Below are positions 35,101 to 35,808 of a stretch of 64,000 nt of DNA, one piece after another; position 1 is the first letter of the stretch, and each line of letters begins with the position of its first letter. A program made the position numbers. Location: assembly GCF_036507355.1 (NCBI RefSeq), contig NZ_AP027877.1; one strand, 5' to 3'. The stretch comes from Escherichia coli. Lineage in GTDB: Bacteria; Pseudomonadota; Gammaproteobacteria; Enterobacterales; Enterobacteriaceae.

Positions 35101-35808
35101 GATGGCTGATGTTTATATTCGTGGCGATATTACAGCACCGCAAAGTTGTGAAATTAATAATTTACAGCCAGTTTATTTTGATTTTAAAGAAATACCAGCT
35201 GCGGATTTTTCATCTGTTGCGGGGAGTGCGGTAACAACACATAAAATCACTAAAACGGTCACTATTGAGTGTGAAAACCTGGGGATACTGAATACCGATG
35301 ATATCAGTACGTCTTTTTATGCTACTGAACCCAATACGGATAACTCGATGGTCGTAACATCAAACCCTAACGTGGGGATAAAAATTTACGACAAAAATAA
35401 TAACGAAATCAAAGTGAACGGTGGCGAACTGCCGACTGATATGGGGAAATCAACGGTCTACGGAGAGAAATCCGGGAGTGTCACGTTTTCTGCTGTTCCC
35501 GCAAGCCTTACTGGCGCTCGCCCCGCTCCAGGATCATTTACCGCGACTGCAACGATAACGATTGAGATAGTACGCTAACCGAATTGACAACGGCGCTCCT
35601 CACGCCGTTGTCATCTTAAGCATTTTCCCTGGCGCATGTTTACGCATCATGACAAAAAAATGACATCACTTATCTTTTTGTTCATTCACAAAAATCAATG
35701 GATTACGCAATAGTTTTGTTTTGTCATAAAACTGTCATAAACCTTACATATAACTGTCACCTGTTTGTCCTATTTTGCTTCTCGTAGCCAACAAACAATG
35801 CTTTATGA

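Follow-up and report, generated by a model that had tools for sequence, protein, structure and literature searches.

In the Pho regulon, phosphate limitation causes PhoR to phosphorylate PhoB. The closest described counterpart of the promoter considered here is pstSp of Escherichia coli K-12, where the 18-mer TGTCATAAAACTGTCATA lies in the most enriched PhoB ChIP-seq region (PMC10294691, Table 1), where PhoB works by recruiting RNA polymerase and where deletion of phoB lowers pstS RNA from 239,097 to 310 (PMC10294691). The neighbourhood of this promoter is variable, and a long polar fimbrial (lpf) operon between glmS and pstS has been published for SE11, E24377A, SMS-3-5, O157 Sakai, non-O157 STEC and EAEC 042 (PMC2608844, PMC6033998, PMC2990770). 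The stretch of E. coli DNA analysed here, 64 kb long and referred to as the window, carries such an operon directly upstream of pstS. Its pstS promoter is a textbook feature that is already known; the new detail is a conserved inverted PhoB-like site that lies upstream of it on fimbrial DNA.

The PhoB-dependent promoter of pstS

The pstS gene (35827-36867, plus strand) encodes a protein of 346 aa that matches the NCBIfam PstS equivalog at 743 bits, and it is followed by pstC, pstA, pstB and phoU. Upstream of its Shine-Dalgarno sequence AGGAG (35817-35821, plus strand), positions 35721-35760 hold four heptamers with an 11-bp period, TTGTCAT, CTGTCAT, CTTACAT and CTGTCAC, which are separated by AAAA, AAAC and ATAA. 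They form a distal Pho box at 35721-35742 (TTGTCATAAAA CTGTCATAAAC; heptamers at 35721-35727 and 35732-35738) and a proximal Pho box at 35743-35764 (CTTACATATAA CTGTCACCTGT; heptamers at 35743-35749 and 35754-35760), the second of which stands in the place of the -35 element. A -10 hexamer, TATTTT, follows at 35771-35776, on the plus strand like both boxes. The resulting geometry of proximal 18-mer, 9 nt and -10 hexamer (TTACATATAACTGTCACC, TGTTTGTCC, TATTTT) is also that of K-12 phoA, with TATAGT, and of K-12 phoB, with CATAAT. From the end of the last heptamer to the ATG of pstS at 35827 there are 66 bp, and 142 bp separate the end of the lpfD stop codon (35578) from the first heptamer, in good agreement with an earlier note on this DNA, which had placed the Pho sites about 70 bp before pstS and the end of the fimbrial operon about 140 bp upstream.

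A scan of the whole 64-kb window for the 18-bp consensus CTGTCATAWAWCTGTCAY with at most three mismatches returned three overlapping registers, all of them within the pstS array, against an expectation of 0.27; three matches were reached in none of 100 shuffles. A PhoB PWM that was trained on 51 ChIP-seq sites (PMC10294691, Table 1), with pstS omitted, ranks 35722-35739 first among ~128,000 positions with 22.9 bits, and puts the other two registers third and seventh. The second rank goes to TGTCACCATCAGGTCATA at 4927-4944, a known ChIP-seq site listed for rbsK that belongs to the training set; it is overlapped by a 15.1-bit site on the opposite strand at 4914-4931.

From TGTCAT in heptamer 1 as far as the ATG, the window and K-12 pstSp differ in only two bases, both in the spacer that separates heptamers 2 and 3 (ATTC in K-12, AAAC in the window). 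Since the island-free strain MS7163 has AAAC too, this difference is an ordinary polymorphism. The -10 hexamer TATTTT and the ribosome-binding site are shared with K-12, and both the ChIP-seq 18-mer TGTCATAAAACTGTCATA and the proximal box TTACATATAACTGTCACC agree with K-12 base for base, with equal PWM scores. The first base of heptamer 1 is T here and C in K-12, and thus departs from the classical CTGTCAT. T is found at the equivalent position in the second heptamer of phoA and in the first heptamer of phoB, and among the alleles of this locus the base may be C, T or G, with TGTCA invariant in all of them. As the ChIP-derived motif starts one base later, with TGTCAT, the C-to-T change is presumed to have no effect. 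Of the earlier description of the boxes as canonical and intact, the second adjective stands, whereas the first is slightly off, in that heptamer 1 (TTGTCAT) does not conform to CTGTCATA.

The 11-bp direct repeats, each made up of a 7-bp TGTCA-type core and a 4-bp A/T-rich spacer, the Pho box that replaces the -35 element with a -10 hexamer 9 nt behind it, and the orthology to K-12 pstSp are the hallmarks of a PhoB-activated sigma-70 promoter. Judged from its sequence, the interval is almost certainly the PhoB-dependent promoter of pstSCAB-phoU, with every position that matters unchanged. By analogy with binding and activation in K-12, two head-to-tail PhoB dimers would occupy the four 11-bp repeats (35721-35764), take up the -35 position and recruit sigma-70 RNA polymerase to TATTTT (35771-35776). 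The geometry of the promoter then predicts a transcription start at about 35783-35785, ~42 nt 5' of the pstS ATG.

The fimbrial operon and the replaced spacer

Between glmS (28459-30288, plus strand) and pstS lies a four-gene operon, lpfA-lpfB-lpfC-lpfD (30596-35578, plus strand), in which all four ORFs are open. Its GC content of 38-52% compares with ~53-56% in the flanks. NCBIfam models recognise the major subunit (377 bits) and the chaperone (507 bits) above their cut-offs, while the usher and the LpfD/StgD-like protein are matched below the equivalog cut-offs. The order of major subunit, chaperone, usher and minor subunit or adhesin between glmS and pstS identifies the operon as lpfO113-type, and RefSeq records with a 100% identical lpfD-pstS spacer annotate the genes as lpfA-D-O113; that of EC2641 has lpfD-O113 to the left of the spacer and pstS to its right. 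In the lpfA promoter region (30289-30595) the PhoB PWM finds no match of 9.4 bits or more. Across 30200-36000, the sole Rfam match, to MicX at 30295-30399, is noise, as its 22.9 bits fall below the gathering threshold of 75.

The earlier note spoke of a fimbrial insertion next to the promoter. A complete lpfABCD operon of the O113 type is indeed adjacent, but insertion is an imprecise word for it, in that the entire glmS-pstS spacer has been replaced. At the left junction of the replaced stretch, ~30290, homology with K-12 stops 2 bp past the glmS stop codon; the right junction is the first base of heptamer 1 (35721), and homology with island-free strains resumes exactly at TGTCAT. Since the replaced segment stops at that base, the promoter is intact. 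The spacers of K-12, O157 lpf2 and lpfO113 upstream of TGTCAT share no similarity with one another that local alignment could detect. Three unrelated upstream contexts meet at the first base of the PhoB array, and this boundary would most simply be the onset of purifying selection on pstSp, so that the right edge of the variable glmS-pstS region would cleanly mark where that selection starts. That a textbook promoter survives beside a known genomic island is in itself of little consequence.

The O113-type operon of SE11, E24377A, non-O157 STEC and O104:H4, also called 'lpfB1', resembles that of the window in its four genes lpfABCD, its locus and its orientation, and likewise in a spacer that leads from a hairpin through an inverted box to the Pho boxes. 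The common B1 allele differs in its heptamers 1 and 2, which read CTGTCAT and ATGTCAT; the allele of the window is rare. The lpf2 operon of O157:H7 (O island 154) is found at the same glmS-pstS locus, backbone homology restarts at TGTCAT there too, and a hairpin that lacks a U-tract follows its last fimbrial gene. It differs in having five genes (lpfABCDD'), another spacer sequence and GTGTCAT as heptamer 1, and in lacking an inverted Pho-box-like site: nothing in its spacer scores above 9.3 bits. The local alignment of the lpfO113 and O157 lpf2 spacers scores 22 against 16.9 for shuffles, 18 of 300 of which reach it, and is thus marginal at best.

A resemblance of the kind GACAA..CCGTCATCTT gave reason to consider the empty K-12 spacer as a deletion derivative of lpfO113. 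This idea was rejected, as the alignment is no better than that of dinucleotide shuffles: upstream of TGTCAT and in either orientation, the window and K-12 spacers score 17, and shuffles score 17.7 +/- 2.6.

At the left end of the replaced spacer, the glmS terminator/attTn7 spacer of K-12 is swapped at 30289-30345 for an island-type, terminator-like hairpin at 30308-30331 (plus strand), which has a 10-bp stem of -16.5 kcal/mol and is followed by UUUUCAUC; the 3' coding end of glmS is kept. In K-12 the spacer downstream of glmS holds the Tn7 insertion point, attTn7.

The inverted Pho-box-like site and the stem-loop behind lpfD

In K-12, the DNA upstream of the Pho boxes is the unrelated glmS terminator/attTn7 spacer, with two half-sites that are weak and isolated. 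In its place, the window has a hairpin at the 3' end of lpfD and, beyond it, an inverted Pho-box-like 18-mer (TGTCATTTTTTTGTCATG, 35648-35665, minus strand), which is a feature of the lpfO113-type spacer only. Only this site and Pho box 1 contain TGTCAT-N5-TGTCA within the 64 kb, two occurrences where 0.03 are expected. With two TGTCA-type cores at 11-bp spacing, an A/T-rich spacer between them and a PWM score in the range of bound sites, the 18-mer has the sequence of a Pho box: it scores 15.4 bits in the window, where it ranks fourth, and 18.9 bits in other alleles, compared with a median of 14.85 bits for the 51 ChIP-verified sites. Its block is also conserved, with 17 of 18 columns invariant against 51% of the island-specific spacer columns (permutation p = 0.002). 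The offset between the inverted site and Pho box 1 is held at 72-74 bp, and this includes Pseudocitrobacter vendiensis, in which the same order is found of an lpfD-like end, a hairpin, the inverted block, Pho boxes that start with TTGTCAT, and pstS. No comparable upstream site is present in the spacers of K-12, MS7163 and O157 lpf2, in which the best PWM score is at most 9.3 bits.

These properties are consistent with a pstS promoter that in lpfO113-type strains has three PhoB sites, the inverted 18-mer being genuine and either modulating pstSp or blocking lpf read-through when phosphate is limiting, a reading that we regard as possible, if rather doubtful. Several observations stand against it. 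Among PhoB sites verified by ChIP, many are without effect on transcription (PMC10294691), no -10 hexamer is found at the canonical spacing of 9 nt in any allele, we found no documented precedent for an inverted auxiliary Pho box, and the conservation of the block could serve another factor or a function in RNA. In its bound-site features and score, the 18-mer is like the sites of multi-site PhoB promoters (phoB, ugpB) and the inert PhoB sites of Fitzgerald et al. 2023, and it resembles the PhoB site of cusR/cusC, TGTCATTTTTCTGTCACC. It differs from these in that it is inverted, precedes the activating boxes by ~74 bp and has no -10 partner. A literature search found no paper that ties lpf or lpfO113 to PhoB or to a Pho box, and lpf is not mentioned by Chekabab et al. 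2014; the published PhoB ChIP data that were found all come from K-12, a strain that does not have the DNA of the inverted site.

We put forward tentatively, and with a little more reserve still, that E. coli of the lpfO113 type and Pseudocitrobacter would share an island-borne, inverted third PhoB site at pstS, ~74 bp upstream of the Pho boxes and just past the lpf hairpin. If bound, the site could couple the 3' end of the fimbrial operon to phosphate signalling, either through PhoB acting as a roadblock or insulator that keeps incoming transcription away from pstSp, or through fine-tuning of the occupancy of pstSp by PhoB. In over a third of the E. coli that have been sequenced, this model promoter has a conserved hairpin and an inverted Pho-box-like site upstream of it, both absent in K-12, and such a non-K-12 upstream architecture could be relevant when Pho regulation in wild and pathogenic strains is modelled quantitatively.

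A PhoB-dependent antisense promoter that would lead from the inverted box into lpfD was also considered and rejected because the canonically spaced -10 is missing in every allele: at the position 9 nt downstream, the four allele classes have CATGCG, AAAGTG, AACTCG or ATTAGG. When GTDB species representatives were scanned for the 18-mer, 59 matches came up, nearly all of them chance matches in unrelated phyla and none in an Escherichia representative; Pseudocitrobacter vendiensis alone was informative. The 18-mer TGTCATCTTTTTGTCATG is found in three Proteus species, with no evident link to Pho; in P. vulgaris it lies between lpxK-like and small csp-like genes with TAAATA 9 nt later, and may be an unrelated Pho-box-like site.

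The hairpin behind lpfD is a conserved stem-loop at 35585-35613 (plus strand), 7 nt past the stop codon, with the arms UGACAACGGCG and CGCCGUUGUCA around the loop CUCCUCA. Its 11-bp stem has a stability of -18.8 kcal/mol (z = -5.3), about that of the terminator stem of K-12 glmS. A comparison of allele classes whose spacers share 74-97% identity, with Pseudocitrobacter vendiensis added, found standard pairs in 88 of 88 pair cells. Two pairs are doubly changed in a compensatory manner (C-G to U-A and G-C to A-U), and in a third A-U gives way to G-U, a change tolerable in plus-strand RNA only. The covariation score was matched in none of 500 column shuffles and collapsed when the register was slid. 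The evidence for a selected RNA structure is good, though not overwhelming, since it comes from only ~4-5 independent lineages or allele classes.

Like the Rho-independent glmS terminator of K-12, the lpfD hairpin is a comparably stable, G+C-containing stem-loop directly past the end of the last gene, as expected of an intrinsic terminator. It differs in its tail: the glmS terminator has UUUUU right after the stem, whereas the lpfD hairpin is followed by TCTTAAGC (UCUUAAGC) with three U in the first 8 nt, short of the five T in eight of the intrinsic-terminator pattern. A terminator scan did not call it, and called no other terminator-like site between 35579 and 35826; in other alleles, too, the tail is not U-rich. 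Lacking a U-tract, the hairpin falls outside the definition of an intrinsic terminator. It is most likely a stem-loop that protects the 3' end, or at most an intrinsic terminator of low efficiency. The earlier note had described a weak hairpin at 35585-35620; the hairpin is real, and only its tail can be called weak. The 248-bp spacer between lpfD and pstS (35579-35826) contains seven TGTCA/TGACA cores against 0.36 expected, two of which sit in the arms of the hairpin, at 35585-35589 and 35609-35613.

The same note had held that read-through from the fimbrial genes is limited only by this hairpin. On such a reading, fimbrial transcription would enter pstS and drive its expression independently of PhoB. 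We consider this unlikely. The missing U-tract makes some read-through plausible, and so does the terminator scan, with nothing else called in the spacer. On the other hand, the stem is strong and appears to be selectively maintained, and the AT-rich lpf cluster belongs to a kind that is usually poorly transcribed. Furthermore, the 248 nt between lpfD and pstS are untranslated and G-poor, with a C/G ratio of 1.3-2.75, and Rho-dependent termination is therefore a further possible barrier; that the hairpin is the only restraint was an unsupported inference.

A role of the inverted block in RNA appears more improbable still. Here, the block would pair with Pho box 1 in lpf read-through transcripts, and the long-range structure would affect termination or processing. 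RNAalifold does predict two 6-bp helices in all 8 sequences, but they are weak, being A/U-rich and closing a loop of ~56 nt, and all 12 pairs are invariant and hence devoid of covariation. The predicted pairing is moreover automatic, because the inverted block is an inverted copy of Pho box 1.

Finally, it is scarcely credible that the junction damaged the promoter, with the C-to-T change in heptamer 1 and the new upstream DNA weakening the activation of pstS by PhoB, for although heptamer 1 deviates from CTGTCAT and the half-site-like motifs of K-12 at -206 (CTGTCAC) and -184 (CTGTCAT) are lost in the window, those motifs score only ~8 bits, the deviating base lies outside the ChIP-derived motif, is T in phoA and phoB heptamers and varies among alleles, and the PWM scores are equal to or above those of K-12.

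Alleles of the locus among E. coli genomes

The intact pstSp is accompanied by different spacers in the population. A 281-bp query spanning the site was run against 5,426 complete E. coli genomes and matched 5,422 of them, EC2641 with 100% identity. The lpfO113-type right end is present in 1,984 of the 5,426 (~37%). The class to which the spacer of the window belongs (at least 90% identity) accounts for 27 genomes, and other lpfD-pstS spacer classes for ~460 genomes at 80-90% identity and ~1,500 at 60-80%, the latter of the common B1 type.

Over the 20 kb from 28400 to 48400, the best match among the 5,426 genomes reaches just 96.7-97.0% identity, but two strains, EC2641 and OZ197100, match the lpfD-pstS spacer at 100%. 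This combination suggests a mosaic or a poorly sampled lineage. The lpf operon of EC2641 is decayed, with a frameshift in lpfA and an IS1 between lpfC and lpfD (2259-6897 of the extracted locus), and lpfC is frameshifted in O17_K12a, whereas the four lpf ORFs of the window are all open. Within the pst operon, the pstA-pstB spacer (38804-38893) shows a length polymorphism of ~92 bp, measuring 90 bp in the window, O17_K12a and MS7163 and 182 bp in EC2641 and O157:H7. Directly past phoU, an ORF of 835 aa (40811-43318) has no NCBIfam match; in the closest genomes this region is annotated as type III effector, EspY4 or pentapeptide-repeat protein, and MS7163 has bglG-bglF there.
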